A stretch of 63,421 nucleotides of DNA, the filler included, from Sluysia triapertura (lineage: Eukaryota): the NCBI GenBank assembly GCA_046118255.1. It is 5 parts of 5 records of this genome, joined end to end, with 100 filler letters (N's around TTAATTAATTAA, not from the genome) between each part and the next. Parts side by side here need not be neighbours in the genome. Positions count along the whole stretch, not along the records: positions 12,666 to 23,732 come from JBJNIA010189397.1; 4 more parts are not named here. One strand, written 5' to 3'. Below are positions 4,070-59,564 of this stretch, piece after piece. The number at the start of each line of letters is the position of its first letter. Within the stretch, counting starts at the first letter, position 1. Under the pieces are notes generated by a model that saw nothing but the letters and a program-made list of their open reading frames with translations, had not been told where the DNA came from and made no database searches. Both the position numbers and the translations under genes were made by a program.

Positions 4070-5466
4070 AATATATAAATTGTTTCAAATGTTCATATTA
4101 AAAAACAATATGAACAATTCTATTTATTACAATTTTTATTTATTTGACACCTAATAAAGTCTGATTTTTAATTGCCTAGATGCCTTTTCTCCTTGAATTT
4201 CATCAATCAGATCCCTTATTTTGTTCATCTTATCAGGAACATTAGCTTGAAAGTATTTTTCGAGATTGTTTTTGCATACTAGTAGGTGTCTTATCCTCTC
4301 ACTACTGCATCTTCAACAGAATTATTATTTGTTTCCTCTTTTCTTCATTAGAACTTTCTTTTCATACTTCTCTACTAGATCAAATAAGAGATGTTTATCA
4401 AATTTTGGATTAATCTCAAAACATGGAAAATCATCACATGCAGCATTCACTTCTTTAACACACGCATTTTCGAAAAACTTGGTAAAACAATTAGATAGAT
4501 GCTTTCGAAATCCAAACCACTGCTTTATATGAATCAACCTTTTTGCACCATATCTCTTGTATAACATTATTATCTAAATTAAAATTCATTGGCATACTTA
4601 AAAACTTCTTTCAATCTTTTTATAATAAGAGATGACGTATAATTTGATTGGAAGTCTTTAGGGTGAATAGGTGCGTTCTCTAACATTAATTTTTAGAAAA
4701 CTTGCCATATGCTTTATCCTCTTTAGAAATTATATATGTTCTGTTTAGTGAACATTTCCAGAATAGTCTGGTTTCGTCACAATTATAAACATTTCTATCG
4801 TCATATTCTTTTAAATTTGGCATGTACAACTCCTTTAAATTAAAATATACATTTCATCCACGGTTTTTGATTCCTCAATAATTCTTTTAGACGATATCAT
4901 ATAACTGGAAATAAAAGAATTAAGCCAACTGTTTGATGTTTTAAAATCATGATTTTCTAAGTGTTATGCTAATTCTAATGCTTTCTGTTGCAATACATCA
5001 CCACTGATACTAATATTTCATGTTCTTTGAATCTGGTATCAACTTGTTAACCACTACATAAATGTGTTTTTCGTTTATGTTTGGTGTGCAAGTTTGACTT
5101 CTAGATTTCGTAAGATTATTTATACAACCTAATGAAAGATTGTATTTTGATGAAAGAAAGCGTTGAGAACAACCTTTATCTTCAACGAATAATTTTAACA
5201 ATTTCTCTTTCTCTTCGATGCTTAAATCCTTTCGAAGCATCGTTTAGGATTTGTATTTTTCATGTTCATAAAAAACAGTTAATAATGAATATTTAAACAA
5301 AAAGTGGAAAAATTATTAATTTATTATACACTAATTATTGCTCACTGTTCAAAATAAACAGTGTTTATATTACAAAACTCAATTTTCCATGAAAACTATA
5401 TGGCTTTCAATAATTTTTGACTTCAATGTTCATATTAAACTCTGTTCATATTAAGCAGGTTTCATA
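4070..5466 (-). mobile_element. Degenerate pogo/Tigger-family DNA transposon (CENP-B-like HTH + DDE_1 transposase pseudogene)
   Basis: Minus strand gives MLRKDLSIEEKEKLL..SQRFLSSKYNLSLGCINN (HTH), VSGDVLQQKALELA..FKTSNSWLNSF (CENP-B HTH), VYNCDETRLFW (first catalytic D) and LENAPIHP. Many stops and frameshifts; ends approximate. Confidence 0.8.
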
Positions 5467-12565: not shown

Positions 12566-12665
12566 NNNNNNNNNNNNNNNNNNNNNNNNNNNNNNNNNNN
12601 NNNNNNNNNTTAATTAATTAANNNNNNNNNNNNNNNNNNNNNNNNNNNNNNNNNNNNNNNNNNNN
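12566..12665. other. Artificial contig-joining spacer (N44-TTAATTAATTAA-N44)
   Basis: 100 bp, identical at four sites; the 12-mer has stops in all six frames. Confidence 0.95.
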
Positions 12666-14110
12666 TTGTTGATAATTAATATTTGAATATAGTGAATACA
12701 TAAATAATTGATTTATTTTTGCAGTTAATTAAATTAATATCTACTTAATTTAAATAATATTTTGAATGAAAACTGCAACAATTTATTAAAAATTTTATTA
12801 TTATTATTAAAGCAAATATTAGTGACTAAATACTACTATGGGTACTATTTGTTTGTAAATACAAAAAAGTATTAAAAAACAAGATTTTATAAATTTCACT
12901 CACAAAAAATACAAAGGAAAATGTCGATAACAGTTATAATTAAGCCTCATTTTGGAAATATTATTATTTATGTTTAAGAAACTCTGCAGTTTATTTATGT
13001 AATAGATTTGGAAAAAATTTCAGTTTAAATTTGATCGTTTCTAAGGGAAATTTTAATTTATGAAAATATAAAATAGGTGCAACTTTAAATTAAATCTTTA
13101 GTAATTTTTATATACAACATAAAATCATTTTAAAAAATTTGTAACAGCTAAATATTAATTAATAAAATTAATATTATTAAACATCCCCTATATAATATCA
13201 TGTATATTACTACTAAAGTCTAACATTCGACACTATATAAACTTACTTAATTTACAATTTTCATAATTTAACAAGTTTTTGTAATTAGAGTTGAATTGAA
13301 TATTCATCTAAGAATTGTAATTGAATTAATATTTTTTATATCAAAGTTTGATTTACCTATATAATATTTTGCGTTATAATATATACAGTTTTGTTATAAA
13401 CTTACCTGATTTAAAATTTTTAGGAATAATAGTTTTTTATTTATAATCTAATTTTTCTAAAGCTTATAAATGACTTAATTTAAAATTAAATTAATATTTT
13501 TGTATCTAAAGGTTCATATTATTATTTTGTATAATTGTTTTAGTTTAGTATAATATTTGGTGTTTATTAATAAATAACCTTAGTATTAAAGTGTGTATTC
13601 TCTTGATATTGAGTAAGATAAAATTTGAATAATTGAATTAATACTTTATAAAGTCATACTAAGTCTATTCCCTGAATTATAAGAAGTTCCTTATCAGGAA
13701 AGTTCAATAACAGCTAGATCTAACAAATAGGTAAAATCCAGAATAAATATAAGCAAAAACATCCAGTAAACGATTGTTCTATAAGTTTTATTGTTCCCTA
13801 AGTCATTCTTAAATAAGTTTTATATACGAATAATATTACAAGTTTATTATAATCTTGTTGAATAAGTTCTAATTTTATACGAATATGGTTTTTATTATTA
13901 TCACATAAGTTGTACCTGAATAAGTGTTATAAGTTTTGACTAAATTTATAAGTGATTACTCAATTAATACGAATTAATTTAAGAGTTTTATAAGATTTAA
14001 AGGATAAATCATATTACTAAATCCTAATTTCATAAGAATTGTAAGATTTGAATAAAATTGCTAAACAAATTGTACCTTTTGACGATTACAGAGCTAAATT
14101 AAGAAACTAT

Positions 14111-15794
14111 ATGGCTTTGCCAAATAATTTTAAAGATTGTATTTCACAATGGTCTTACCAGAAATGCGCAAATTTAGTGGAGCAGAGGAAGAACTCTGCG
14201 ACTTATGTGAATACGATAGTATCGCCGAAGCTATTGGATGAAACGAAACAGAAAAAGTTAAACGAATACAAAATTACCTTACTGGCGTGGCGATTCAGAT
14301 TTATAAAGACATAAATGAACAAGATAAAGCAACTTGGAACTCTTTTGTTAATGCATTTACCTAGGAGATTGCCCACGATGACATGGAAAAATGTTAAATT
14401 TAAGAAAGCAAAAAGCTAATGAATCTGTTCATGAATTCGCAAGAGCATTAAAAAATCTAGTAAATAGAGCAAAGATTGCTGAATATAAAAAAGAAATGAT
14501 TTTAAAAGATAAATTAAAAACCAGTTTACGTCCTGAATTGAGAACTTATGTTACTTTAATTGAAGAAGCATCTTTCAAAGAATTAGCTAAGAAATGAAGA
14601 AGTATAGAAAAATCTTCATGTAAAGATAAAGATAGTATTAATTATGTTAGTTATAGTGAAAGTAAAAGCCCACAGAAATAATAGAGATAAATTTATTAAT
14701 TCTAATAATCGACATGATAATTATAATAATATTAATTATAATAGAAATAATAGTAATTATAAATATAATAGTCCGCGCAGAGGTATTTTTAACTATAGGG
14801 GAATCTTAGAAATTTTAATAATAATTTTAGAGGAAATAATTTTCAGTCAAGAAGATTTCAAAATAACAGAGGAAATCGAAATGGCATGACAAATTATAAA
14901 CAAAGACCAGAACCAAGATGGCCACCAAATACAAATATAAATAATTATAGAGCTCGAAGCAAAAGTCCGGATAGATATAATGATAAGGCACAAACCAATA
15001 TTGATGGGGAAATACGCTGCGATAATTGTAACAAATATGGGCACTCTATAAGAAATTGTGGTAAGTTAAAACAAAATACTTTTAGTCAAGATTTCTCTAA
15101 GGTAAGGGGTTCTCAACAACAAAAATATCAAAGCCCTAATAGGAAAGTAAGGTTTAATAATAGTAGTAATAAAAATGAGAAGGGCCAAGTAAATGGTAAC
15201 TGTATAAATCAAAGAAAATACAACGAATATGAAGATCAATATCAATATGAAGATGACTATTACGAAGACGAAGAAGAACCTAACAGAAATAGAAAGAATA
15301 ATAAGAAGGAACAAAGAAGACATGAATCTAGTAGCGAAGAAGATAATGACTACTCAAAATTGATAACAGATAAAGAAAAGAATGCTATGCTACGAGAATT
15401 CTATATCACTGGCTTAGATTGCGATAAACATCGATATCGGGAATTCAAGAAAGATAGAAAACGAAGAGAACAAAAAGAAAGAGAAGAAAATCGATTAACA
15501 ATACAACTAATTCAAGTAAGAATCCAAGAAATATTTAATAAAGCTATAGAAGAAAGGATCGAACAGATTAAAGAAATCAAAGATGTAATTACAAATGAAG
15601 AAATGAAACGAAGAATTCAACAATTAATCGATAAATTGGAAAGTAAAACACAAAAGATAGAGCCAGAAGTAGAAGAAAGCAGTACAGAACCGAGTAGCAT
15701 GGAAGAAGAAATGAATGATAAAGAAAGTGAAATGAGTAACACAGAAGAAGATGAAACACAGGAAAAGAATTTACAGGAGAAAATGATGTTATAG
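14111..15794 (+). pseudogene. gag: Retrotransposon Gag (capsid-like domain + CCHC zinc knuckle), frameshifted
   Basis: LPEMRKFSGAEEE..AEAIG*NETEKVKRIQNYLTGVAIQIYKDINEQDKATWNSFVNAF; LRKQKANESVHEFARALKNLVNRA..LRPELR; knuckle CDNCNKYGHSIRNC at 15018-15059; then an acidic/coiled-coil tail. Confidence 0.85.
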
Positions 15795-16879
15795 AAAATG
15801 ATGTTATCAGACAAACAGATGACGAAGAATTACGAGCAGAAGAAATAGATATCGATTCAGGAGAAGAATACTACAGTGCCACCGAATATATGGAAGAAGA
15901 AATAATCAATAAAGAAATAAAAATAATTAATAAATTAGAAAAGGAACCTATATTTCTTCTTGGCAAATGAGAAAATTGATACCCTAGAATTACAAAGAGA
16001 CTAAAAGGTCGAAGAAATTTTATTAAATTTGGCTAAAGGTAAAACAAAAGCTAAACATTTAGATGAAAATTTGGATGAATTATTAAAATTAAATTTGAGT
16101 ATTTACAGTGGATATGATATTAAAATGATACTTGCTATATTAAGCAATGAAGATAGCTTATAAAGAAATAAGGCTATAAAATTATTAAGAAAAATAGACC
16201 GAAATGAAAAAGAAAATAATCCCAAAGATTTAATGAAAATGAAAATAATTATTAATGATATTACAAATATTTTAATGGAACCCCAATTATTTCAAAAGTT
16301 AAAGATAATATTGAATTAATTAATTCAAATGATACAACAATAACCGATGTTGATTTATATTTCTATGAAAGAAAATTAATTCCATATGAATTTATAAATG
16401 ATTATGGTTATCCAACTATAAAAGGAAATCATGAGGAAACAGTAATAGAATCAGCAATATTCATGGCTTATACTAAATCTAAAGAAACAAACAAATTTAA
16501 TAATAAATTTTTTGATAATTTGGCTAAGAATAAACCAATGATCAGCCCACATTAAGATAAAATATCCGACGTTGATTTAGATAATTCCCAGGTTCATTAC
16601 TAAAAGAATTACTTGAAGATAATAATAATGATAATAAAAATGAAATTATAGATATGACTAAAGATAATAATGATAATTTTGATAAATAAACCCGATTAAA
16701 TTCTTGATTTAAATAAAAACCCTCATATTGAAACAGAAAACAAAGAAACTAATACCTTCAAAAGAAAAACTGCTAGACCCAGAAAGAATAGAGACATTGA
16801 TGAAACAATAACCCCCAATCCAATACAAAGAAAACCTGTTGATTTAACAAAAATAACTTATAAAAATAATAGTGAAGAA

Positions 16880-17330
16880 ACACTTAATTCAAAAAGTGTA
16901 ATGTATACTTTATTATCGTATAAGTTTACTAATTTTGACAAATATAAAATATTATTACCTGAATTTAAAACATAAAACTGCATTACTCAAAATAATTGAT
17001 ATAGTGGAAGAAAAATACAAACATACAGATATAAGTGATCATTTGGATAACGGACAATACAAAACCATTATTAATAAGCAAATTAATGCTGGTATTAATA
17101 GAGAAAGATTTAAGATTATAATATCTTATGTGATGTTCCAATGTAATAAAGCTGTATTGGTAAATAAAGAGAAAATAGATAACGTTATAAATTTTATAGA
17201 TAAGAAACTTGGTAATTGGATAAAAGAACAAGGAGGGTGGAAAAATATTATTAAAGAAAAAGAAAAAGAAGAGAAAAGCAAACTTAATGAACCACTTAAC
17301 TTAATATCAAAATTAATTAATTACCAATAA
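16880..17330 (+). CDS. Bcl-2-family (BH4-BH3-BH1-BH2) domain carried by the retroelement; frameshift near 16970
   Basis: BH4-like NSKSVMYTLLSYKF (16886-16927, upstream frame), BH3-like ALLKIIDIVEEKY, BH1-like GINRERFKIIISY (17091-), BH2 LGNWIKEQGGW (17208-17240), in the correct order and spacing. Confidence 0.8.
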
Positions 17331-17358
17331 TTCAAATGAAATAAACCCATAACTTGGT

Positions 17359-18500
17359 ATGTCAATCAACAATATGCTTTTTATAATTGTTCTACTGGCT
17401 TTATTTGGAATCCATAAAACAAATTCTATTAAAGCTTGTGATTGCAGTCAACCACAGATTAGAAGAAAATTTTCATTATTGGATACTGAAGACTGCCCTG
17501 AAGCGAGACCCAATAAAGTTAAAATAAAAGATATGAAAATACTAAAAGTTTATGAAGAAGGAAATCTAGTTACAACTTTAGTTCGAGAATGTTCAGTTAA
17601 AAGATCTGTAGTTATATGGTATTGTGGACATCATAGTCATTCATCATTTATCGATATTTTAATGTGTTGAAACCATTTAGGATTTTACCCTATAATTGTC
17701 GTGATGCTTTTGAAACTGGGTATATAGGTTTAAATAATGGAGATAAACTTAAAATTAAAAATAATGAAAAAATAATTTATAATATAAAAACTGCAGGTAA
17801 TGTAGTATTAATGGCACTTGCGAAAGAGGTTCGATAGAATACGAAGGGAAAATTTATAACAATGTAGTAGCGCAAGAAACATAAGTTGTAAGTCTAAGAT
17901 CTTTTAATGAAAGTTTTGATTTAGAAAAAGGAACTATGATGTCACGACCATTTTGTAAAAGTGACCAAATTAGTTGTGATAGGTGTAAATCAACACTAAT
18001 ATATGAATTGGAAACTTTTCAATGTCCTCTAGTATTTTTAAAACTAATCAAATTTAATTTAGTTTCAGGACTTATGTATCAAGATGATGATGAATTAGCA
18101 GTGGAGGAAATAAATGAAAAACAAATTCATAAAGATAATTTAGATTCACCACAAAGAAAACGACTTAATGAAGTGGAAACACCGACATTACCAATGGCAA
18201 ATAAAGAAGAAGATGGATTAATATTTGTTGCAAAATGTCAGTAATTAGATGTAGTCGGGAAATTGCAGAAACTAATTATCAAAGTATTTATTTGTCTGAA
18301 AATAAAATAATGCAAGCCAAAAAAAGTATAAATAAAAATAATTTGAAATTAAATACCTACTTTAATAATAAAATAGATTTCTATTACCAATTAGGATTAA
18401 TGTCACTTGAGAAAGTGTATCAAGCAATGATAACAAGAGATTGTCAATTAAATAAAGAAATTTTAAGGACAAAATTAGCAGTAGCAATTACTAATGGACG
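17359..18500 (+). pseudogene. env: Envelope-like glycoprotein related to chuvirus-type (class III) fusion glycoproteins; frameshifted and 3'-truncated
   Basis: Signal peptide MLFIIVLLALFGI, then ACDCS..FSLLDTEDC, ECSVKRSVVIWYCGHHSHSS, NCRDAFETG, TAGNV..NGTCERG..NVVAQE, and NLKLNTYFNNKIDF..LEKVYQAMITRDCQLNKEILRTKLAVA. This Cys/motif pattern matches chuvirus-like glycoproteins. Spans ORFs 17359, 17936 and 18235. Confidence 0.7.
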
Positions 18501-19894
18501 TTATAAATAAATTAGAAAATATTATTATTCACGGTAGATTAGGATTTTTAAAGATGCCAACAAATTCACAAATATCATTACCATAAATCATATTAAATTA
18601 TCCACCAAGACCATGTACACCAATTCCAAATTGGAATAACTTAGATTGGTGGGACAGGGATGCTTCGGTGACATCAACGTGTGGATCAGCATCTGAATCA
18701 TCATATACATCAGGAATAGAAAAAGGCAATGGTAATTATAGTAATAGTAATACTAATAGTAGTATAATGCTAATAACAGGGATACAAAATAATAAATCTC
18801 TTTATATTATTACTTTAATGCTATTATTTGTGCAATTAATAACAATGATAACTTCGGATCCATCAAAATTAATATCTTAATTTTAATAGATACTGGTCAA
18901 TAGAGTTAAACATAAAAAATGAAATTCCGAAGTATTATTTGGGTATATATTGCATCTATACCAACCCATTCTTAATAAAACCACCGTCAGACATAAACAA
19001 TATTTATTACTGTGAACATTCAATTCATTATAATACTATTTTAATTATTTCATTACATAATAATAAATCTCAAACGGAACATTTTAAATATGTTTAAAAA
19101 TGTCAAATACCATAATATTACTATTGATGATTGTAATCCACCTGGCTAAACGTTAAACTTTGAATCTAAATGATTAACCGACTCAATACAACAAATATCA
19201 ATATCAAAAACACACAAAAAACGAAAACGTTTTCATCAGGACATAAAAAGTGTTTCAGAATCGCCTAAGTAGACAACATCACTCAGCATCATTGCAACAT
19301 CCTGATACTCATCAATTTCAAAATAATCATGTCTCCTTGTATCATTAGGTCTTAGGTTTCATATCATGTTTTCTTGTATCATTAATAGGTATGTGGGTAT
19401 TCTTTGATTTAACATTCGTTGACCATCAACATGACACTGAATTTTCGATCTTGATTTGTCATTTTCATCAAAGGTCATCAATATATAAGACTTGAATTAA
19501 TTTTTTGATACGCACTTTCTAAGGAGTTCACTCCTAAAATTTAAAAATATCAGCATTAAGTTTGAAAATTTTATTGTGGATGACGTTATATTATTATTAT
19601 TATTATTAACTTTATTTATAATATTAATTTCATTATTAAAATTGTTATCGTTATCCACATTGATAGTATTATAAAACGAGTGCTTAATGCACGTAAGAAA
19701 TTTATTATCATTATTGTTATCGAAAATATGAACATAAAAATAACAAAAATATACTTAATTAATTTTAAAAGGATAAAAAGAAGGCGTAACACGTATTAGT
19801 TCATGTATCACTTTTGATTAAGGATAGATCGATATTTCATTTATTACACTAATTTCACTAACATAATTGTTTAAGAACAAAATTAAATGCCTTG

Positions 19895-20737
19895 TTACTG
19901 CATTTTCCGTTTCACCACGTAGACCATATCTTGAACGTTTCTCGATTCCAAACAGAAAATTCTCAGACCAAAATTATGGCGTGTGATGAAGAATTGATGG
20001 TGTGACCATAGCTGTTTAAAGCATAGTCGTGACCAGCAGGACCATGGCATTGCTCGCCAAAATAAATTTGGATTTGGACCAGTAAGTGGTGTTGTGTAAG
20101 AATAAGACACAGGTTTTGTCACATTAAAAGAAATTACATAATTAATCTCCTCCTGTAGTGGTGGTTCCATGACCGTAGCTAGTTCTAAACCAGTAGACCA
20201 TACATCTTGTAAAATTACGAATTTAACAATATTTTTATAAACTAGATAAATCAATTCACTTTTAAATGAATGTTTCATCACCGTATCTGGGTCTGAGTCA
20301 GTAGGTGATACATTATACAAAATTATAAACTTAGTTTTATTAGATTCAAATATATGACAAATTGATGGATATGAATTCAATAAGTCGATACTTCGTAAAT
20401 TTGTTTCAGAAACATAAACAAATCGTGATATTATAACTTGATTTGAATTTCGTATTAAACATTCATCTTTCGCAATATCTGTAGTTGATTTTCCTTCAGT
20501 TAAATCTTCTATTGTATCCTTAGAATTATTTGTGCAATCACTTGTAGGAGATTCAACACTTCTATTATTTTCAAAAATTTCAATGTCCTGTAAATCTGAT
20601 AATTCTGGTTTATTATCATCGACTTTAATTAACTTTTTCTTTTTTAGCTTTCTACCACTGATAGCTCCTTGTAATGGCCGGTATACAATTATTTGGGCTA
20701 GTAATTTAAAATTTAAATTTAAATTATTTAAAAACAA
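19895..20737 (-). CDS. Uncharacterised 280-aa intronless ORF, convergent with the retroelement env
   Basis: 843-bp open frame in roughly 75% AT DNA; no recognised motif; true start uncertain. Confidence 0.45.
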   Translation of the reverse strand: MFLNNLNLNFKLLAQIIVYRPLQGAISGRKLKKKKLIKVDDNKPELSDLQDIEIFENNRSVESPTSDCTNNSKDTIEDLTEGKSTTDIAKDECLIRNSNQVIISRFVYVSETNLRSIDLLNSYPSICHIFESNKTKFIILYNVSPTDSDPDTVMKHSFKSELIYLVYKNIVKFVILQDVWSTGLELATVMEPPLQEEINYVISFNVTKPVSYSYTTPLTGPNPNLFWRAMPWSCWSRLCFKQLWSHHQFFITRHNFGLRIFCLESRNVQDMVYVVKRKMQ

Positions 20738-23732
20738 TACTACAGTACTTTAAATTAAATGTTCTTGCTTTAACACAGAAAAATAAAAAAGCGCATGTTT
20801 TATTTAATGTAATAGCTACACAAATTGAATCTAGCCGTGCGTAAAAAAGTAAAGCGCACAAAGAACTTACATGATAGCAAAGATGGGCGTAATTTTTAGT
20901 AGCATAAAAATTGCGACCAATAAATCTCTTTTTATAAAAGTTATGGGTTTTTTCAAAGTTATGGTAACAAATCAGGAACATAAGAGGTTTAAAGCCATAA
21001 AAATTCAAATCTAAGCCAAAAAAATTGAGACAGTAGATAAATGGTCCATTGAGTTGCTTCGAAAATCATTCCCATGTCTTCTCATGCTAATCACCCCACT
21101 CAGTACGTAAAATAATGGCCATCACTTACATTGTTGTTGGGTGGATTCACTTGGAGAATTATTCTCAAAAAACCACCATAAAATTCGGATCCGAATCCAT
21201 TTAAAACTACCTTTGTTCTGGGAAGAATTTTGATCCAATCTGTCATTTTTCAAATAGTTTTTAGAGATAAGACTTAAACATATATCTTGCACGTCTTCTA
21301 AAAATGCAAGATATAACTTTCTGATACTTTGTAATTAATTTTTAAAATGCAATTTCTAAATTTTTGAATTTCTTTGTAATTATTAATTAAAAATGCAGAA
21401 TATAACTTTCTTTATAATTAATATTATTTAAACAAGGGATTTTCTTCTTTCTTTTCTTTAAAATCTTTAAAACTTTCTTTTTCTTTCCTTTTTTTCTTTA
21501 AAACTTTTATGATTTTCTTTTTATTATCTTTAAAAATTTTTATAATTTTCTTTCTCGTTTCTGTAAAATCTCTACAATTCTCCTTCAATTTTCCTCAAGT
21601 TTAAGTGAATCTTTTATTGAAAGACTCACTACAGACTAATTTAACTTTGTCTTACAGACTAATAGCAATAGGACGAAGAGTGAGAGTAATTATGTTTCGG
21701 AACCAAACGCAACTATTTATAATAATAATTTATATGTTGGAGATTTTTATTCTTATTAATTATTTATTTATTTTTGGTCTTGTAATGTGTGTGATAATAA
21801 GTTAAAGTTGTGCGATGTAAAGAGTATTAGCGAATGACTTTTATACAAATACATGACTGTAAGAGGGAACAAAAGTACGGTATATGACTGAGACACCACA
21901 CTCCTGACAGGGAATTAATTGTTAGAATAAACGGTTTTAAAATTTTTAAAATTGTTTTCAGATTTATTTTTGTAGGTAAATGCTTTGACCGAAATTTTAC
22001 CAAAAAAAATATGAAAAAAATGTGAAAAATAATTAGAGGTCTACGAAAGATAAAAAATGCAAAAATAATAAAATATAAAATATTAATGTATAAAATTGTT
22101 ACATCATTTTTTAAAGAAAACTTAAAATATAAAAATATGAAGTTCCACAATTACAAAAATTATAAAAATACATAAATATAAAATTATATAATTATGCAAT
22201 TATAAAATTTCAGAATATAAAATGATACGATTAGACACTTCTAGAATTGCAAAAAACATAAAAGTGGAAAATTGTGAGGCACAAGAAAAAGTGTTGCGTT
22301 GTAATGATGATTGGATGACAGCGGGAATCATGCTTAATGTACCAATTTGGAATGTTGATGAAACAAATCTTATCAGACAACTGTGAATTTATAATGTTAA
22401 AGGGCGATGAATAATGTAGTGTTATGGGATGATGTAAGCGAGACATATGATGAGGTTTGTGTGTAATTGATTGTTATGATTTATGCGATGTGTACATAGT
22501 CGTGGGCTGAACCACCAAATATATTTATTTTATAAAATAATATAAAATTTAAACTAAATTATTTCTTTTGATAAATGCTATAATAATTCGACTTCTTTCC
22601 GCAATTTAATTTGTCTCTCACTTCTACTTTTTTTGATAAATTTTGATTTCACTTGGTTTTCCATTACTTAAGCTTACCCTGATCAATAATTTACGAGTTA
22701 CGGTTAGTCCGTAGGATTTTTAGAAAGTAAGGTACAGTGGAGGATTAATAAGTCTAAATTTGTTTAAGGTTTATTTGCAAGTTTAATAATATTAATTTGC
22801 AAAATATTATTAACTGCGATAACATATTTTCTGATAAGATAAAAATAAATAATGATTCTTTAAATATTTACAACTACATTGTTGAGATGTTTGTAAAATT
22901 TAAAATATAAAATAATAATTCGTTAAATATTTACCAAAAAACTTTTTTTTATTTAAAATACTTCTCGAAATACTCGAAAACTAACGTTTGTAAAATGTTT
23001 TATATGCCAATTTAATGAGGAAGATAAAAATTAAAGCCTTACAAACTTTAATCATTAGTTAAAAATTCATGTATTATCTTCCATCAAAATATATTTTGTC
23101 GAATTTCTTTACTTCTACAATACGGCATTGTTAGAATCATTGTAATGATTTGCTTTGTAGTCCGAATTCATCCCTTTCAATTTGATATGCAATTTTAATG
23201 CTCACACAGCATTTTGTGATTTTTCTCCTGTCCAAGATTTTTTATAATAACCCTCTGCATCTTTATCTTTTAATTTTTTCTTTGTAAATTTTTATCTAGG
23301 CAAGTTATTTTTACTAACTTATTTTTTTCACAGCCATTTTTAATTTTTCTGCTAATTTTTTATTGGTTTAATTTCTTTCTTTATTTTCAAATTTGGCCAG
23401 TTGTATGAAAGCACACCCATTATTTTATTCGATTTTAGCCAATCACAAATACATCAGCATGACTGAAAAATTCCTTATCAAACAAAGTAGCCATATTGGC
23501 CTTAGATGAAATGAAATATTAGATATTGTAATTATTATTTTCATGATTATTATTATAATTTTAATTCTTATAGTTATATTTATTATTATATTTATTATAT
23601 TTTGTAAATATTAAAAATTTTAAATAAATTTTGGATCATAATAATTAATTATTTATTTAAATAGAAAAATAATTGATAATAATCTAATAAAAGTTAAATA
23701 AAAATTAATTAAATTAAAATGTTTAATTTGAA

Positions 23733-23832
23733 NNNNNNNNNNNNNNNNNNNNNNNNNNNNNNNNNNNNNNNNNNNNTTAATTAATTAANNNNNNNNNNNN
23801 NNNNNNNNNNNNNNNNNNNNNNNNNNNNNNNN
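23733..23832. other. Artificial contig-joining spacer
   Basis: N44-TTAATTAATTAA-N44. Confidence 0.95.
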
Positions 23833-26800
23833 AAAATTTATCTTCAATTTCCACAATGTGTGTTTTTTGTTTTAATTTTTACTCCTTTTATACTCTTTGT
23901 GCAGTATAGTAGTCAAAATTAAATAATCAGTATAAATAGTTAATACGAATTCAAAATTTTTGTAATATTAAATAGTCAATAATAATAATCATAATTTTTG
24001 TATTACAACTCCAATATCATACTAATAATTTTATAGTATAAGTCCAATAATACATACAAGTCAATAATAATCATAATTTTTGTAATATATACTAATAATT
24101 TTATATAGATTCAATAATGCATACAATATCACATGTTAATAATAATAATCATAATAATACTTAATTATTATTTCACTCTATTCTGGAATATTATATTTGA
24201 AAATATTTATTACTTATAATTAAAATATTACAAATATTACTTTACTTAAAATTTATTATAATTAATATATTACACATATTAAAAATTTACATACATTGCA
24301 GTTTTTATTTGACATTTACAGTCTATAGCATTTACAGTTTATAGTTTATTTATAGTTTACAGTTAAATAAAATTTTATATTTTAAACTTCGAAAGTTCAA
24401 ATTGATTCGAATATTATATAATTTAACAATGCATGGAATTGCTGATAAAATCGAATAAATGTTGTTTGGTTAATCTTGCCAAAGTGTTGAATAGACTGAA
24501 TTTCTTAGAATAAGTGTTTTAAATCCTCGAAACAGATGAACTCTTTTAAATTTGCTTCATTAAAAATAGAAGCCTTTCTCATAATAAAAATTAATTTTGT
24601 TTTTATAAAGCTATTAATAATAATATTAATAATATTATTAGTAATGTTAGGAATAAACAAAAATGATAATATAATATCTTATATAACTAAACCAATCACA
24701 ACTTGATAAAGAATAATATCATCTGTACTAAGTAAATTTATTATCTTAATACTTAAATCACAGGACATTATGAATAAAATAATAATTATAAAAACTAACA
24801 TTAATTTTTTGTGCATTATTTTTGGCGAGGGAGTAATAATATTTATTTTAAAATATTTAGACTTTGTTAGATTTCCAAAAATTTTTCTTTTCAATTTTAT
24901 TTTATTTTAATTCTAGCAACAATAAAATTAACATAATCAACTAAATTTTTATTTATCGTAACATTAGAAAATTTAATAATAAAAAGTTTTTATTGTGATT
25001 AATAATCAAAAGAATAAAAACAAAACAAAAATATAGTACGTAGACAATCACTATTCATATATGGTTCATAAATGTTAAGTTGGCCCTCAAACTCTTCCTT
25101 AAATAGATCTCTCAAACTTCTTTTATTTGGCCCAGCAAACCACATTTTGTATCACATAATAGCTGGACATCGTTGTTAGAATATTTATATGAAACATCAT
25201 GTACTTTTGTTAAGCTTTGATTGTCGCACATTTAACATAAATTTAACATTTAAGTAAAAAGATTTAGCAATTAGCAATATCGATTTTTTAATTATGCCTC
25301 TTAGGTAATTAATTTGTATTAATTATTATTGATATTTTATTTTATAATTGCAGATACCGGCTCCGCACACGTTCCAACCTGATTCAAAACAATTGACTTT
25401 AACAAATATTGACCTATAACAAATTGTGTTATCATTTTACATGAACAAAACCTCGACATATCCCGAATCTCAGCAATTTTATCTGTTCATAAATTAATGA
25501 CAAAATTACATATTTAACATTTTGTTTTGTATCAAAAAAATTTATCATTGAGATAGATAGTTTATTGTCAGATTGGCCATTAGTTATATGATTAGACATA
25601 TAACGGCGGTTATAATTATGACTAATAATACAATGCATTTTAAGTACAGTTTCAAATCGTGCACTTCATGATTATTGTCATCATTGATGGCCTAAATAAT
25701 TTATTATTTATTAGTAGAGTCTTCATGATTTTTATTATCGGTAAGAGCTGTTGTGAGGATTGAATAGTGCATTAATAATCGATTATGATGATACTTAATA
25801 CATTTGGAAAATAAACAGCAACTGGTAGCAGTAGCTAAGTCATAATTTGTATCTAAATTGTTAACGAAATTAGAGTCTGTGTTTATGACATCTTTTCCAC
25901 AGAATACTTTGATTATTAAGAAGCGTGATCTTGACAGATTCATAATCATAATATCTAATTAATGTTGTAGGACATGACTGTGGTAAGAAATTCATTTTAA
26001 AACTTTCTTCACTTTCTTGATCTAAATCTTTAGCTGTAGCATTATTTGGAATTTCTTCTGTCTCTAAATCTTCGACAGATTTTGTATCAAATTTTATTAT
26101 CACTTAGTTCAGAAATAAACATTATATTTTTAACTTGATTAACTTGGTCAAAATAATATTTACTGATTTGTCAAAAACTAAATCAAGTATTTTTTAAATT
26201 TAACTGCAATTAAGCTACATTTTATTGTGACTGAACTTTTTTAAATTTTAGTTTTTAATTACTAGAACTTTTGATTGAAAAAATGTGCTGTTGCAACAAA
26301 ATATTATGTCCTTTTAAATAATTAAAAAGTCGTTTTAAAATATTTTAAACAGCCAATTAGAAAGCAATTCTTTGTTGCTACTTCAATCTTTACTCTAAAT
26401 AGCTGACCATTAATGACTGAAAATGAAATATAAGATAATTAAAAACTGTCAAAATTGATAGTTTAAATAACTACTGGTAATGTTAATAATTATAATAATA
26501 ATGATAATAATGATAATAATAATAATAATCGTCATAGTAATAATAATAATAAAATAAAATTAGAAATGCGTATTTTGCATAAGTATTTATCCTAAAACAT
26601 ATCCGTTTCTTTCTAAAAGTCTTGTGATTTTTCTTCATAGATATATTTTAGCAATAATGCCGAACTTAAAACTTCATTTTTAAGCTTCAGATTATAAGTT
26701 TCTTTCTGCAAGTGAATATTAGGAGAAAAAAGATTAGTTATTTCATGTTGCATTTCTAAAAATCTTGCTTTAATTGATCGAAAAGCACTACTCTTGAATT

Positions 26801-28461
26801 TTACAGAACGATTTTCAATTTCATTGATAAATGATTCATAATTATTTGATGCATATTGAAAATGTGAACAATCTTTTTTACTACCGATGCTTTGTTTTCT
26901 GTAGAACTAGAAAATAATGAACCGTTTTGCGCCTTTGTTGGATAATTGTATTTCTTCTACTTTAATTTCTTGCTTATCGCATTACTTCTAATTCTATTCG
27001 ATCCGATAACTCTAGATGATATTCTTATTCTTCTACTGGTTAATCGTTTTTTTTGATAAAGAAGTAGCACGTCTGTGCAAAATCGTAGTGGAAGAAGTGT
27101 TAGGTAAAAAGGAAAAGAAGGAAAGATATAAAAAAATGAAAGAGAGTTATGATAGAGAATTAATAAAGTTATTAATAAAGAAATTCCATTTAGTTTATTG
27201 TTATTTTGAATTTTAAATACAAATTTAATGATTTTGGATGCAATAAAAATATGGTTTTTAGTGTATTGTAATGTATTACGAATTTTGTGTAAAGATGTTT
27301 GCCACCACATACATACATCATAAGCCAACTAATTTTTGGTATAGTACCAACACACAAGTTGATCACACAGAAGCGTTTTTTCAAATATGATCGCACAAAT
27401 TTAATTACAAAAATAAGACAAAAAAAAAGAAAATTAGTAACAATTGAATTTTAATAAAAAAAAGTTTCGATCTACGTTATTGGAGAAGTTCTTCAATAAT
27501 AAACAAAAGTAAATCCACTATTTTATTCTTCAACTACTGCGAGATACATTCTTCAAAATTTCTGACGATTCCATGTTAAATTGCATTAGTTCATTGTTGT
27601 ACAAGTATATAACATTTTAATAAAGGCTTACAATCATTTTTAATTTTTCAAAAAGCTATTTTAAATTTTTAAATAAAACTACATTATTTGATATTAAAGA
27701 AGATTACCTCAATTTTTTAAATTGATTATACATTTATTACATTTTTGAGAAAATATTTTCTTAAATTTTTAACCTTAAATTAACAATGCCATTTTCAAGA
27801 GCTATTTTTAATAATTTATACAGATATAAACATAAAATATGTTGAGTCATTTTAAAGAGACTCATAAAATCAATTTTCAAGTTCTGTTTTAAAGAAGGAT
27901 ATAACATCTTTAGATAAATAAAATTTTGAATATTATAAGTAAACAAATTATACAAAAAGTGATGTATAGAGAACAATCATAATACTTTGATAACCATTAA
28001 AACATCAATTATTAACCTTAAGTAAGTAATCTTATTCTATAGCAAAATAATGTGGACTTATTGAATAAGAACAAAGGTTACATTCCAAGTGATGCAACAC
28101 AAAGCAATACTAATTCGGAAAAGTCTTCTTTTGTGTACTTGCTTCAGTGACAACTTAGAAAATCCAAACACTTTGGGACTGTTTTTGTTTAAACATTTGA
28201 TTTGGCCTCAATGATTATTCAAATTTTCAAACATTGAAGCACGATAGAAGAATTGCTAAGAAAAATAAACTTCATTCAGTATTTTATTTTTATTCGAGTT
28301 TAAGGACTCAGTGAGTATATAAAGTATTTAAACACACATTCTTAGATTCTTTCTTATTTATATTTATAGATATGTACACAAATTAATTCCAGGTGAAAAA
28401 GGTTAAATCTGCTAGAGTTAATTCGAGTGTACGAGTTGATGTATTTCAGGCAATTGAATCT

Positions 28462-28710: not shown

Positions 28711-29807
28711 AATTTGAATGTAATATATGTATTTTAAAATTATGACAATGTAAATAAGAATTTTTGGTCCAAGATCACAAATATATTGTCTATAGTGCTT
28801 TTGTTGTTGCCGTTGATTGAAGTACGTTCAAGATTATTTATATACATTCTTAAAGTGCAACATAGTTAAATTATATAGAAATGGAAAAATATATAAAGGG
28901 TGTACAAACATTCCTGAAAATAGGTACATATTCATAGAGAGAAAAAGGAAGTCAAAGTTTACAAACATCATAGTTATATTTATAAAAAGCGTGGAGGAAA
29001 ATATTGGAAAATGTTTAACAATTCATTACATAAAGGGAAAAATTGAAAGATTCACAAACATTCATATAAGAAGAAGAGATACTTGTGGTATTGTCGTATC
29101 GGATTTTATTAATGTATTGAAGGGTAAAAAAGAAAGAAGCATATATTATTCAACGGAAACACAAAAGTACCAAAGTGGGATATTGAAGGGAATGATCGTT
29201 TTAGATATTAAAGGAAGATATTAGGGATAGCTTGCTATACTCGCGTGCCAAACCAGTAATATCGGTACAGTACTACCAGTACAAAATCATATTCTTGATC
29301 CCAAGAACCAAGAGCTCCAACTACAAATGTGTCTACGGAGACGGGACATCTGAGTTGGTCTTGGAGTTTTTGGGCCACTTGAAAGTTTTCATAGGGGATT
29401 TGATGTACATGAAAAATAGTTGGGAAGAATTAGTACCTTGCTCTTGAACATCAGGTTGTCTATAATCTCCAAATATAGGGGTTTGGGTATCTTTCTTGGC
29501 TGAGAAGCCTATTTGCTTTAGTTTACTAAGTAAACATTCAACAATTTTATTATGTCTTACTGTAAGACCAGTGGTAGTATGTGGGAAAAGACATAATACA
29601 TAGCCAAGAGTTTTTCTTTCGAAGCCACACCAACGACAGGTACCAGGAAAATTAAGTCGAATATTCTAGGGCCAAAATTTAAGTTTCAGGTGATTATTCC
29701 TGGCTTTAGTCATAAAAATCTAACACTAGTTTCCTAATTGTAGGGGAAAATGACAACCAGATCGAGGACTTCTCATAAAGCAACCGACAAATCGACCTTG
29801 GACTTCA
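28711..29807 (-). mobile_element. 5'-truncated non-LTR retrotransposon with restriction-like endonuclease (NeSL/Utopia/R2-type): C-terminus + 3' UTR
   Basis: Minus strand: KARNNHL..CRWCGFERKTLGYV..RHNKIVECL..RQPDV..IPYE..VDTFVVGALGSWDQE (CCHC-RHN-PD-VGALGSW signature). Flanked by direct repeats cagctgtgcagttcg (28693-28707) and cagccgtgcagttcg (29808-29822). Confidence 0.8.
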
Positions 29808-35289: not shown

Positions 35290-35720
35290 TTAAATGAACA
35301 CTATCTAAGAAGACTTTTTCAAACCAAGCATGCAACCTACGCACAAAATTTAAGTGAAGAAAGCCTCATATTTAGTAATAAATTTGACTCGACAGCAAAA
35401 TCGCTTAAATGAATTTGCTACTGAAGCAAGTTTCTTAGTGGCAAACCTTTTGCTGGAAGAGAATTTATTAAAAAATGCCTGTTGGATATTTGCGATGTGA
35501 TGTGTCCAGAAGTGAAAAATAAATTTGAAAATATAAGCTTGTGTAAACAAACTATCGCTATATGAGTAGAAGATTTAAATGCTAATATAAATAATCAGTA
35601 TCAGATAATTTAAAATCGGCCAATTTTTATGCAATATAAAAGTTACTGCTCAGTTGTTAACTTTTATCAGGACTAACATCGAAGATTTTTAAATTTCAGA
35701 GGAACTTCTGTAAATTGTTC
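35290..35720 (+). mobile_element. hAT (SPIN/Charlie/GTF2IRD2-like) transposase remnant
   Basis: YLRRLFQTKH..ATEASFLVA..PFAGREFIKKCLLDICDVMCPEVKNKFENISLCKQTIAI*VEDL. Confidence 0.75.
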
Positions 35721-36767: not shown

Positions 36768-36867
36768 NNNNNNNNNNNNNNNNNNNNNNNNNNNNNNNNN
36801 NNNNNNNNNNNTTAATTAATTAANNNNNNNNNNNNNNNNNNNNNNNNNNNNNNNNNNNNNNNNNNNN
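36768..36867. other. Artificial contig-joining spacer
   Basis: N44-TTAATTAATTAA-N44. Confidence 0.95.
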
Positions 36868-38012
36868 GTTTGGTATAAAGCGTATATACTAAGCGAACTG
36901 ACCCTACAGATAATTTGTTAAGATTAAGGAAAAATCTAACAACTATAAGCTATAACCCTTATGTCAACTTCAGCTTTAGCGAAACCCAACATTACCTCAC
37001 TTATATTAAGCTTTAATTGTTTTTCTTTACTTTTTGTATTTTACTCTATGTACTTGTTAACCTTATTGAATTGCCTTTATCTCCGCGATACTCGCATTTT
37101 AAATACTGAGACACGCATTTAGTTATTCGCTTTAAAGAATAATTCTAACTTTAAAGTAATTGTCTAAATTTAAGTTTGGCAATCCGATCATTATTATTAA
37201 ACAAGTCTTAAATAATATAAAAGAATTAAAATTACTACTGCCAATTAATTATTTATACCATTATTTAGAGATTTTACGCTAAATGATATTTTATTTTATA
37301 GCAGCAAATTGTTTCATTATTTGTGTAAGTTAATGAAAGCAAATTTAAGTATAATTTAATTTGATATTTTTTTGGGGAAACGTATTTACTTATTTTAGCT
37401 CAACTAGGTGCTAAGATTGTAAATCAAGTTTAAAGCAACAAATTTCATCCAAACAGTTTCAAGTTGATCTTTGTTTCCAAATTCGAAAATCCTTTCTTAA
37501 TAAAATTCACTATATATAAATCTAATACTAAATAACAAATATTGAATATTAAATTAGACAAATAATTTCAATATTTTACATAACTACTTTTAGTGTACTT
37601 ATTTAGTGTTTTATGAAAGAATTATAAAACTTGACAATATTAACTCACGAATATTATAAGATTAGTAATAGCATATAAATGGATTAAAATTACAAATGCA
37701 TTCTTTGAACAATGAAAATATTATGTATATCAAATTTATATTCGAGTAATTAATATGTTTTGATTAACTAATTTTAATTTAGTATAAATTCTTAAAATTT
37801 CAAATTATCATTTTATTTATTTAAAATTTTTGATTTAAAATTCCTATAACGTAATGAGTAGATTAATTAAAAAGTATTTTATATATCACTTTTAATAATA
37901 AAATATAAATATAGTTATTATTCAGAAAAATTGCCTAACATAAGAATTAAATAATCTAACTATATAGCTTTATTGATATAAAGACACTTAAATGTTTTGA
38001 AAGTATAATAAA

Positions 38013-52900: not shown

Positions 52901-53107
52901 ATATCGTAGTTAATTGATTCGTATCAATTGATATCATGGATTTATGATGTTAATATATGAAAGGTTTTCAGGACTTATTACTATCTCAAAATATCTGGTA
53001 ACAAGAAACTTATGCTGCATTTTTTAGTTCCGTAGAAAATGACAGAAACTACGATAATATGGCAAATACAAATTGAAAAGTACAAAATAATTTTCAATTT
53101 ATCATAC

Positions 53108-53387
53108 CTTTTCATTAGTATTTTCAACTACACATTCTTGACCATCAAGTTTAGAAAAATCACCAGGACACCATTCCGAGGTTCCAGAACAGAATTCAGG
53201 TAAATCGCATCCAGGATGATTTCTGATTGGCAAATTGTTTTCGTATTTTCCACGACAAGTGACCCCTGACTTTTTATATTGGCATGTAGATAAATCACAA
53301 CATGATCCACTGGCACATTTAGCATTTCCGATCAATTTACATGTGCGATAATCACAACAACGACGTACTGCTTCAGGACATGTGTTT
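53108..53387 (-). CDS. ADAM disintegrin exon
   Basis: NTCPEAVRRCCDYRTCKL..CASGSCCD..CDLPEFCSGTSEWCPGD. Confidence 0.92.
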
Positions 53388-55029
53388 CTAATAATAATAA
53401 TAATGATAATAATAATAAATAATAATAATAACTCATTTCCACAATCACATTCTTCACCATTTTCTAAGATACCATTACCACATTTCGTAATTGGTGGAAT
53501 ACTTAATGGTTTTATATTCCAAGAATTTTCACTAAGAAATGCTTTCTCCAATAAATACGTACTATTATTTGGATAATTGTTAAGACATTTCAAATAACCT
53601 ATTTTTAACAATGCATTCATATCTCTTACTGAACAATCGGACCAGATCATTTTCATGTCATTATATCTGAAAAAATAAAAAACGTATCATTGAAATTAAT
53701 TACTTCCTTATAGTAGTATGTTTTCTAAAATTTATTTCTAAGAATAACCTCTCAAATTTAAAAAAACAATGAGCTTAGTGAAATGGTTCGATCAGTCTAT
53801 CTGTTAGAATTGTATTAGAGTGATTGAAACCTCTACATAACAAACACTTCATTTTATGAAAAAGTGTAATTAACGCTTCAAGAATATATAAATAAAATCA
53901 AAAAACATTTTGTTTTAATATTAAATTTTATTAAAATTTACTTCACAATCTTCAACCCTTAAATGAAAGTACGGAACAATCAGAAAAGAGTAGGAAAAGA
54001 TACACTATTGACCAAAGAGATATGGCAACAAAATTCTCAAAAATGAAGTGGATATTATAAATAAAAATGAGTTTAAAAATGCAAAGAGTTTACGAAAACT
54101 TCACTTTAAAAATTGATCGCTTAGTGTATGAGTGATTTGTTAAGAAAAGACACAAAAACTTCATTATATCTGGCGATATGTTCCAGACTATGGCACTACG
54201 AATTTCAACGAAAATGAGTAAGGGTACTTTTAAAGCTTCAAATGGATGGCTTGAACATGTTTCAAAAGTAGACATAATATAAGCTCAAAAGTTATTTCAG
54301 AAGTCTTAGTGGATCAAGCATTAGTAGACAATTTCAAAATATAAATACGACAGCTCATTTTTGTTTGTTTATTAGATTGTTTGTTATTTCTTTTAACGAC
54401 CAAATTCAATAACTTCCAATGTAACAAGATTCAAATGATACTACAGTTTCAGAGAGAAATATTTACCAAATAGACAATGATGAATTCGTTTTTTGAAAAT
54501 GTGAAAACTATTGACAGATTTTAGCAAGTTTTTGATGAAATATTAAAATAGTGATTGGTTAAATTTTTTAGTGAGTAAGACTTGACGAATATATCGTTAG
54601 CAGAAATTTTCGTAGAGTTTTTTGATCTATTAAATAATTGTTTTAATCTATTAAATAAAAATTAGAATATATTAAAATAAATAAACAAACAATTACATAC
54701 AATATTATTTTTCTAGTTGTAGAGTGAAATAAACAACCACGCATTTTTCTATAGAAACCAGCAGAATGCTCAGGTTCACCAAACTTTCTAAGCTCATTTT
54801 CATTAGAAGCCTTGCTTCGAATTGCAAAATAATTCCTTACGTGTCATCATTATTTTTCTGCTATTTGCTAAATTGTCATTAATATTATCCTATCTACCAA
54901 TTGCATTAGTTATCTGGCTTTGATTTATTTCTGCATTTTGTTTCGTTTCTCTTGAATTGGCGAATGCAATTTTAGGAAAATAAAAAACTAGAATTTTGGA
55001 AGCAATCAAAATAAAGTGAGCAACAAATA

Positions 55030-58000: not shown

Positions 58001-59564
58001 TATTGCACTTTACAATAACCATTACTTTCAATGTGTCCAGTTTTAAAGTGCATTTTTAATTTCAACATTCTAAAAAATATAACTGATTAATCCGCGACAA
58101 ATCGGGACAATGATAAAATCCAGGATATCTGGTCACTCTAAATATGTATGTAATAAAAATTAACAAAAACTATTATAATCCTTCATCTATTCTTGCCATT
58201 TACTACTTCAATTAGTTACTGACTAATCATAAGCAATACAACTTTTGTAAACAATATAAAAATATTAATTTAATTTTTGTACCGATAATTCGATTAACCT
58301 TTTACATTTCCATCATAATGTTAAAATTAAGTAATATTTATAAAATTTATTTTTCCCAATAAAATAATTACATTTTAATAAAATGATACAATTACATATA
58401 CAATTACAAATAAATTCATGTAATGTACTAATGGATTATTTTAAAAAAGTATTTTATTCACAATAACAATACAATTTTCATTTCATTATGTTTTATAAAA
58501 ATAATACATTATTAAAATCTGTCATTATTTAACCAACTTTAATATGCGTAACTGAAGTTATAAAGTGTAGAATTTACTTTAAAAATTCGATAATATTTTT
58601 GATAATAGATCTTTGTTGGTCACGTTTCGGAAGCATGAGTAATTTATTTTATTTACTCTAGACTTGTTCAAGCAAATGTGATATCAGGACATCTTTATAT
58701 ACGATCTTAGCATACGATCAAAAGGAACAAATTTTCAATACTTAACTTTCAACTTCTTTTGGAACTGTGTAAAACGAGAGATAAGTGTATTTCTAAGCAC
58801 TTAAAAGAAAACTTTTAAGATTATATTAAAATGCATTATGTTCGTAGGGTTTTTTTACAATTATCAAAAATGCATACTGATCAAGAATAAAAACCATGCA
58901 AAAAATTCCAGATAACAACAAATATCTCAGTCTCAATCGGTGAGATATTCTCCGCCACAATCGATCACTTCTTTACACCGTTCTGGTAGTTTGTCAATCC
59001 AACGTTTATTGAAGCTTCGTCGAAAAATTATTCAATCCACGTTTTTATTGCTTCTTCGTTTTCAAATGTGATGGTTCGACATTGAGTGGAAAAGATATTG
59101 GAATAGATGTCAGAAATGTTCATTTTTAGCTACCTGACACTCCATTTTAATGAGGGTAATGAAAGTGAAAGTTAGTCTAAAATAATTAAGCTTAATGAAT
59201 ACAACTCAAATAAGTTAAAACAAGAAGTTGGTATGTTTTCTTTGAAACAAATATTTTATAAAACATACTTATTATATAAAAGAAAATAAAGCAATTAAAA
59301 TTAGTCGTAGCAGAATTCCTTGGCAACACTGCTTCCACCAATAACAGCAACTATACATAAAAACAATAGTAACTAACACAAGACCAATAACACAGTTATG
59401 CTTCGTTGTTATTTTATTTTGTTTATAATTCGTTAAAGTGAAAAGATAATCATTTTGTTGGATATATCTATTAAAATTGGTCTTCCAAATTTCTATTTGT
59501 ACTACCATAAAATAAATATTAAATTGACTGAAGGCCTGCAAAATTAAAACAAATGTCACCAATG

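Follow-up and report, generated by a model that had tools for sequence, protein, structure and literature searches.

Burro, or GYPSM1 (Jurka 2007; Grohme et al. 2018, per PMC6431247), is a group of gypsy-like LTR retrotransposons of giant size that occurs in planarians of the Dugesiidae. According to the passages of PMC6431247 consulted, one ORF of 4,873-5,140 aa encodes, in this order, Gag, a Ubi2/SUMO-like domain, a BCL2-like motif, env and pol. Two to three CCHC knuckles are present, PR-dUTPase-RT-RH-IN follows env, and the elements have long LTRs and a total size of >30 kb. The env of Burro matches mononegavirus fusion glycoproteins. BIR and ubiquitin-related domains are also carried, and interference with host apoptosis is put forward in that paper as a proposal. 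For one planarian, the paper also reports Burro fragments in decay, interrupted by stops and frameshifts. A BCL2-like domain just before env is thus already published for planarian Burro, and the arrangement described below is not new. The same passages give no BH-motif detail, and the likeness to Burro drawn here is one of domain order, not of the state of BH4 or BH1.

Chary and Hayashi (PMC13524379) describe, in the part consulted, GAG-ENV-POL errantiviruses with an HSV/gB-type ENV in flatworms, of cysteine type C1a. Six such elements, Smed_errantivirus_1-6 from Schmidtea mediterranea, are intact with pol. A Bcl-2 domain is apparently not discussed in the main text of that paper, nor is a BCL2 domain mentioned in the consulted passages of PMC8532177, PMC11410931, PMC13238120 and PMC10175614. 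No functional test of a planarian retroelement BCL2-like domain was found in the literature searched.

The window analysed here, a stretch of 63,421 nucleotides of the Sluysia triapertura assembly with a GC content of 18-33%, holds what we consider with good confidence to be a decayed, pol-less copy of a repeated flatworm gag-env retroelement, likely of Burro type, with a polyprotein that likely ended in a captured Bcl-2-like domain before env. The contig holding the element is bounded by gaps at 12566 and 23733. All four gaps of the window (12566-12665, 23733-23832, 36768-36867 and 49162-49261) consist of two 44-N runs around a 12-base linker with stops in all frames; as these are artefacts, the sequences on their two sides need not be neighbours. 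The features of the element and of its immediate flank are as follows.

14045-14594, + strand: decayed gag capsid-like region, with open stretches in three frames and several frame breaks and stops
15018-15059, + strand: single CCHC zinc knuckle (gag nucleocapsid), an exact C-x2-C-x4-H-x4-C within the 331-aa open stretch 14799-15791
16259-16552, + strand: candidate partial ubiquitin-like domain, from by-eye resemblance
16700-16885, + strand: polar linker in the same frame as the BH4-like helix (frame scan)
16886-16927, + strand: BH4-like helix (alpha1) NSKSVMYTLLSYKF, in register with the BH4 of Bcl-xL
16960-16975, + strand: frame break of the window copy at the BH4/BH3 boundary, where frames switch and other copies vary in length
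16980-17009, + strand: BH3-like helix, from the 7y99_A alignment; Leu and Asp five apart are kept, the small residue before Asp is replaced by Ile
17097-17108, + strand: BH1 position, reading NRER; Asn and Arg are kept, Trp and Gly replaced
17217-17240, + strand: BH2 motif WIKEQGGW, from PDB matches and pattern scan
17353-17430, + strand: hydrophobic signal-peptide-like segment opening env (19-mer, mean 2.07), about 40 codons past BH2
17353-18507, + strand: decayed class III (gB/mononegavirus-type) env, matching PF24664, interrupted at several points and apparently truncated
18587-18877, + strand: 97-aa open stretch ending in the hydrophobic segment 18794-18850 (frame scan; no Pfam match)
19895-20749, - strand: 284-aa open frame just beyond the element, with a Trp/Cys-rich end and no Pfam match

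Purines are enriched on the + strand between about 14045 and 18900, and a series of open stretches that switch frame covers this region. No Pfam match was obtained for 14045-14594, and the gag capsid-like label is inferred from its position before the zinc knuckle. The knuckle is the sole site with three or four of the four ligands in 13900-17400, and its Pfam scores are E 0.22 for zf-CCHC and E 0.012 for CLIP1_ZNF. The ubiquitin-like candidate found no support in the PDB sequence search, Pfam or Atlas. The env is identified by two PF24664 matches, both above the cut-off (E 4.3e-11 for profile positions 3-94 and E 9.9e-8 for positions 267-355 of 653), and the 18587-18877 stretch is possibly its membrane anchor. 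A homologue search with the env piece gave no relative among 29 candidates, and a search of viral contigs gave none in eight stretches. Six-frame comparison of 18900-23601 and 23850-26851 gave no pol match, and a pattern scan of the window gave no pol motif, nor does 12667-23732, compared with the window, contain a repeat pair that could represent LTRs; gypsy membership is therefore unsupported in the window copy. This copy is a decayed, pol-less and dead one, which may be internally deleted.

Two public sequencing runs, X1 and X2, cover part of the window, and no RNA data set is listed as doing so. Run X1 may come from the same or a very close genome, as one of its contigs, of 504 bases, matches the flank 19098-19578 without a difference; the evidence for many copies is not lessened by this. 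Run X1 provides 9,917 contigs on 12700-20500 and 404 on 16840-17440, the latter covering 29 of 29 bins, with 341 of the 404 less than 95% alike. The domain is covered in run X2 by 10 contigs, which are short pieces and mostly less than 90% alike. The Bcl-2-like domain is a feature of a multi-copy family, not a lone retrocopy. The counter-case named in the earlier note, a single-copy host retrocopy with its own poly(A) and TSD, fails, since hundreds of diverged contigs span the segment and its junctions. No A run of at least six occurs in 16800-17500, and flanking repeats reach only 9-10 bases, the background level. Length differences among the X1 copies lie at 15959, 16586, 16971 and 18231 (12 of 114 such rows are listed), and these four places coincide with frame changes between open stretches of the window copy. 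Loose ends of other copies are found at 18474 and 18493, in env. In both runs, the summed contig depth, which is not a copy number, is roughly 10-30x higher over env (17398-18702) than over the Bcl-2 segment; in related env-bearing families, the sequence before env may be more diverged or a different one. The 19895-20749 frame may be another repeat, as X1 contigs with many differences cover it.

The motifs first reported for the domain (BH4-like, BH3-like, NRER at the BH1 position and WIKEQGGW at BH2) were all recovered by frame translation at the positions claimed. The idea of a transposon-borne Bcl-2-like domain is supported by profile and PDB sequence matches and by the repeated retroelement family in which it occurs. 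The BH3-like helix, NRER and WIKEQGGW share one frame, open from 16902 to 17327, and the BH4-like helix lies in the neighbouring one; as had been claimed, no intron is needed, the domain being tiled by open frames. When the core was compared with Pfam, as the earlier note had proposed, the top match was Bcl-2 (PF00452, E 7.1e-4), yet its 20.5 bits fall below the gathering threshold of 31.4; reading through the break with X gave 20.2 bits. All 60 PDB sequence matches listed (86 at E<=10) belong to the Bcl-2 family, with a best E of 0.014. None of these 60 is a viral Bcl-2, and the suggested resemblance to compact viral Bcl-2s finds no backing there as a kinship. Six-frame translation of the whole 63-kb window gives a single instance of the pattern W[ILV]xxxGGW. 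In Atlas, the first-ranked cluster (0.88, 196 of 256 features) has PF00452 in 12% of its members; recognition was low, and the match is to be read as a lead only. Each of these results is weak by itself, but they are mutually consistent, and the domain is probably similar to Bcl-2.

Searches for relatives of the domain returned none among 59 candidates at E<=0.1 and none among 1.84 billion representatives at E<=0.001. One metagenome match, in 1 of 371 stretches, was put down to chance, being a bacterial contig with a 28% match and without BH motifs, and weak Pfam matches to intron maturase, MGDG synthase and others (E 0.005-0.2) were judged compositional.

In comparison with the cellular and viral Bcl-2 family (Bcl-2, Bcl-xL, Hydra Bcl-2-like 4), the window domain has BH4, the BH3 core, Asn and Arg of BH1, and BH2 in the same order and spacing. 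Its alpha1-alpha2 loop is similarly short to that of loop-deleted Bcl-xL constructs in the 7y99_A alignment, and here too a hydrophobic segment comes after the domain. However, the identity is about 20% and the Pfam score lies below the cut-off, BH1 has lost its Trp-Gly and BH3 the small residue that precedes Asp, and the domain sits inside a retroelement frame.

The BH4-like helix was said to be hidden in an upstream frame and joined to the rest by a frameshift near 16970. Its frame is open from 16700 to 16972. With an X placed at the break, Bcl-xL 7y99_A aligns with query residues 6-125, from BH4 to BH2 (16.9 bits, E 0.05), and LSYK is identical, whereas the control, in which the upstream part is read in the ORF's own frame, gives an alignment over BH1-BH2 only (12.8 bits, E 1.1). 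The extension supports the upstream BH4; the gain of 4.1 bits over the other frame is small, and in register. The 35-residue BH4 piece alone has no match in PDB or Pfam. BH4, BH3, BH1 and BH2 are thus all present, in order and spacing, in one sequence alignment to Bcl-xL. The frameshift was also found where expected: the frames switch there, four X1 contigs differ in length at 16971, and loose ends of other copies lie beside this break. Several contigs also turn into other sequence just upstream of the BH4 helix (loose ends 16898-16913).

Two single-sequence AlphaFold models of the domain are of low confidence (pLDDT 42.0 and 49.3). The second one has eight helices in a pattern compatible with a Bcl-2 bundle. 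These low-confidence models superpose on Bcl-xL at a TM of 0.22-0.27. Each of the 37 Foldseek rows listed for the second model is a Bcl-xL or Bcl-2 chain, with E never below 0.1 and TM never above 0.27, and the result for the first model is similar; this ranking leans on sequence and is hence not independent of the sequence matches. The Foldseek-independent VIA search contained no Bcl-2 chain among the 50 matches listed, only generic helical bundles, the best with Z 7.7 (rmsd 2.4, 76 aligned) and Z 5.5 (rmsd 3.6, 114 aligned).

Selection was assessed on the 40 of 52 difference rows that are listed, each scored singly against the window codon. It is sites that are counted here, not independent events, and rows with good support are over-represented in the table. 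Of 23 differences in the core frame, 12 are synonymous, against 5.8 expected (P 0.004), and the other two frames are not enriched. When three codons with two listed places each are dropped, 10 of 17 remain synonymous against 4.6 (P 0.005), corresponding to a rough omega of 0.26. On the BH4 side, the BH4 frame has 4 of 9 synonymous differences (1.6 expected, P 0.046-0.049) and the ORF frame 2 of 9 (2.3 expected); with one codon dropped, the BH4 frame gives 3 of 7 against 1.2, which is marginal (P 0.085). At the start of env, 5 of 7 differences are synonymous in the env frame, with 2.1 expected (P 0.022). One row, at 17325, falls outside all segments. The dN/dS comparison across copies that had been called for thus yields a synonymous excess in the core and a marginal one on the BH4 side, and purifying selection held the protein sequence of the domain in check as the family diverged.

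At BH1, Gly is replaced by Glu and Arg is kept in NRER (17097-17108), so that xxGR with its glycine does not occur. The proposed check whether a family consensus restores NWGR gave no sign of it: among the 40 of 52 listed difference rows, from contigs at least 80% alike, no difference falls in 17094-17108. Differences are present in 28 and 31 contigs at the nearby positions 17109 and 17114, and rows with only four contigs are listed too. With no listed BH1 difference despite such variation beside it, NRER is probably the state of the whole family. According to the consulted parts of PMC2836074 and PMC9609553, the BH1 glycine is required for pro-survival activity and GR is very strongly conserved; variola F1L has LGVR at BH1 (PMC9609553). 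A classical anti-apoptotic action of the Bcl-2-like domain is therefore doubtful, its BH1 glycine being replaced, apparently family-wide. We regard the chances that its role in the once-active family was a pro-survival one as about evenly divided.

The rest of the window identifies the host and contains the following exons.

38001-47963, + strand: exons of host adenylate cyclase type 9 (PF00211), with a membrane exon at 38001-38726 and catalytic exons at 47156-47434 and 47754-47963
53102-53686, - strand: ADAM-type disintegrin exon(s) (PF00200, E 1.2e-12)

For the adenylate cyclase exon 47754-47963, all 11 rows of at least 82% identity among the 120 matches listed are from Platyhelminthes, and the best other phylum reaches 80%. 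With 70 aa compared, flatworms lead by two identity points, and the rows with the lowest two E-values come from a mammal and a nematode (67-70% identical). By this sequence comparison, the host is a flatworm; it is likely a planarian. A long Asn-repeat insert is located near 41900-42600 within the cyclase gene. The disintegrin exon(s) lie between two pairs of inverted-repeat arms (50478-50701 and 58931-59187) that are 84-92% complementary; the left arm region 50556-50723 resembles a mariner transposase end by eye, without a Pfam match. Other pieces were also judged by eye and are without Pfam support: 29238-29665 (- strand) holds fragments that resemble the C-terminal part of an R2-type non-LTR element, with its zinc knuckle and restriction-like endonuclease, and 4154-4853 (- strand), 35425-35562 (+ strand) and 41585-41737 (+ strand) look like short, decayed pogo/Tigger and hAT transposase pieces.

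Set against Burro as it appears in the consulted passages of PMC6431247, the window element has the same order of a gag with CCHC knuckle, a BCL2-like domain and a mononegavirus-type env, in a flatworm host, and it is decayed by stops and frameshifts, as are the Burro fragments of one planarian. The by-eye ubiquitin-like candidate at 16259-16552 stands at the position of the Ubi2/SUMO-like domain of Burro. In contrast, the window copy has one knuckle instead of two to three, about 3.3 kb from the gag start to env compared with the giant Burro ORF, and neither a MATH, BIR or ankyrin match nor pol or LTR. The window element likely works like a Burro-type enveloped Ty3/gypsy element, with membership in Burro itself unproven owing to the single knuckle, the short gag region and the absence of pol. 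Smed_errantivirus_1-6 likewise have a class III gB-type env directly after the gag region, and in a by-eye comparison with the published sequences, the env block 17581-17649 is identical to Smed_errantivirus_2 in 14 of 23 residues and to Smed_errantivirus_6 in 13 of 23. Those elements are intact with pol, whereas the window copy is pol-less.

The earlier note had also suggested that the domain was part of a polyprotein. The open BH4 frame upstream (16700-16972) and the length differences where frames change agree with this, and the Bcl-2-like domain was probably part of a Gag-side polyprotein. In the window copy, the Bcl-2 frame is separated from env at 17317-17352 by a stop together with a change of frame, and no length difference is listed there. 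Of the listed differences, three lie before the env ATG and are compatible with the env frame; one of these three sits at the stop, where other copies differ. This suggests that env was read within a longer chain. A hydrophobic segment is absent from the domain's own frame; the env signal segment follows in another frame and is a candidate tail anchor for the domain.

In the once-active family, one long frame would have been translated, and the env signal peptide would have brought the chain to the ER. Signal peptidase would cut behind the segment, leaving it as a C-terminal membrane anchor of the Bcl-2-like domain. In cellular Bcl-2 proteins, this is the task of the tail anchor. The domain might then damp a death or stress response of the producing host cell during particle making, and with the BH1 glycine replaced, it would do so more likely via BH4 or an altered groove than by canonical BH3 capture. 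Taken in full, the picture of a compact Burro-like family that lost the BH1 glycine family-wide under purifying selection, and whose domain, anchored by the env signal peptide and tethered to the ER, acted on the host without canonical BH3 capture, is tentative and, as a whole, rather unlikely to be right in every part.

The main rival to a pro-survival role accepts the same element and supposes that the domain is a Bcl-2-fold scaffold unrelated to cell death, binding an innate-immune, silencing or ubiquitin partner, or folding or anchoring the polyprotein. Some poxvirus Bcl-2-fold proteins have such death-unrelated roles. The apparently family-wide change of the BH1 glycine to glutamate points this way, as do the constraint still acting on the protein sequence and, in the consulted parts of the sources, the very strong conservation of GR, the need of the glycine for pro-survival activity (PMC2836074, PMC9609553) and the ubiquitin-related domains of Burro (PMC6431247). 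On the other hand, BH4, Leu and Asp of BH3, Asn and Arg of BH1, and BH2 are all kept; the LGVR of variola F1L implies that viral pro-survival proteins tolerate an altered BH1, and the BIR domains of Burro point to apoptosis. We see the scaffold as a possible explanation, though not a probable one. It is improbable that the domain is a canonical, viral-type pro-survival Bcl-2 in which NRER reflects decay of the window copy or of a subfamily: all four BH regions are in register, the copy is heavily decayed, and the BH1 evidence covers 40 of 52 difference rows from contigs at least 80% alike, but differences of 28-31 contigs at 17109 and 17114, and rows of only four contigs, are listed while 17094-17108 has none.

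Very little likelihood attaches to a host Bcl-2 retrocopy inside one element, or to a chance likeness of a Lys/Asn/Ile-rich helical linker, both of which are largely refuted. The weak Pfam and PDB scores, the failure to find a relative at E<=0.001 in 1.84 billion representatives and the low-confidence folds (pLDDT 42.0 and 49.3) would fit such an origin. Against it stand the hundreds of diverged contigs across the segment and its junctions, the lack of A runs and of flanking repeats above background, the frame-specific synonymous excess, and a position that matches the published BCL2 motif of Burro in the consulted part of PMC6431247.

To the published arrangement, the present analysis adds the BH4 helix, the purifying selection within the family and a BH1 that departs from the pro-survival motif, although the original supplements on Burro may already show BH motifs. 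Should the domain be functional despite its missing BH1 glycine, it would be a case of a retroelement employing a captured death regulator in a non-canonical way, in an animal whose tissue turnover depends on stem cells and cell death.
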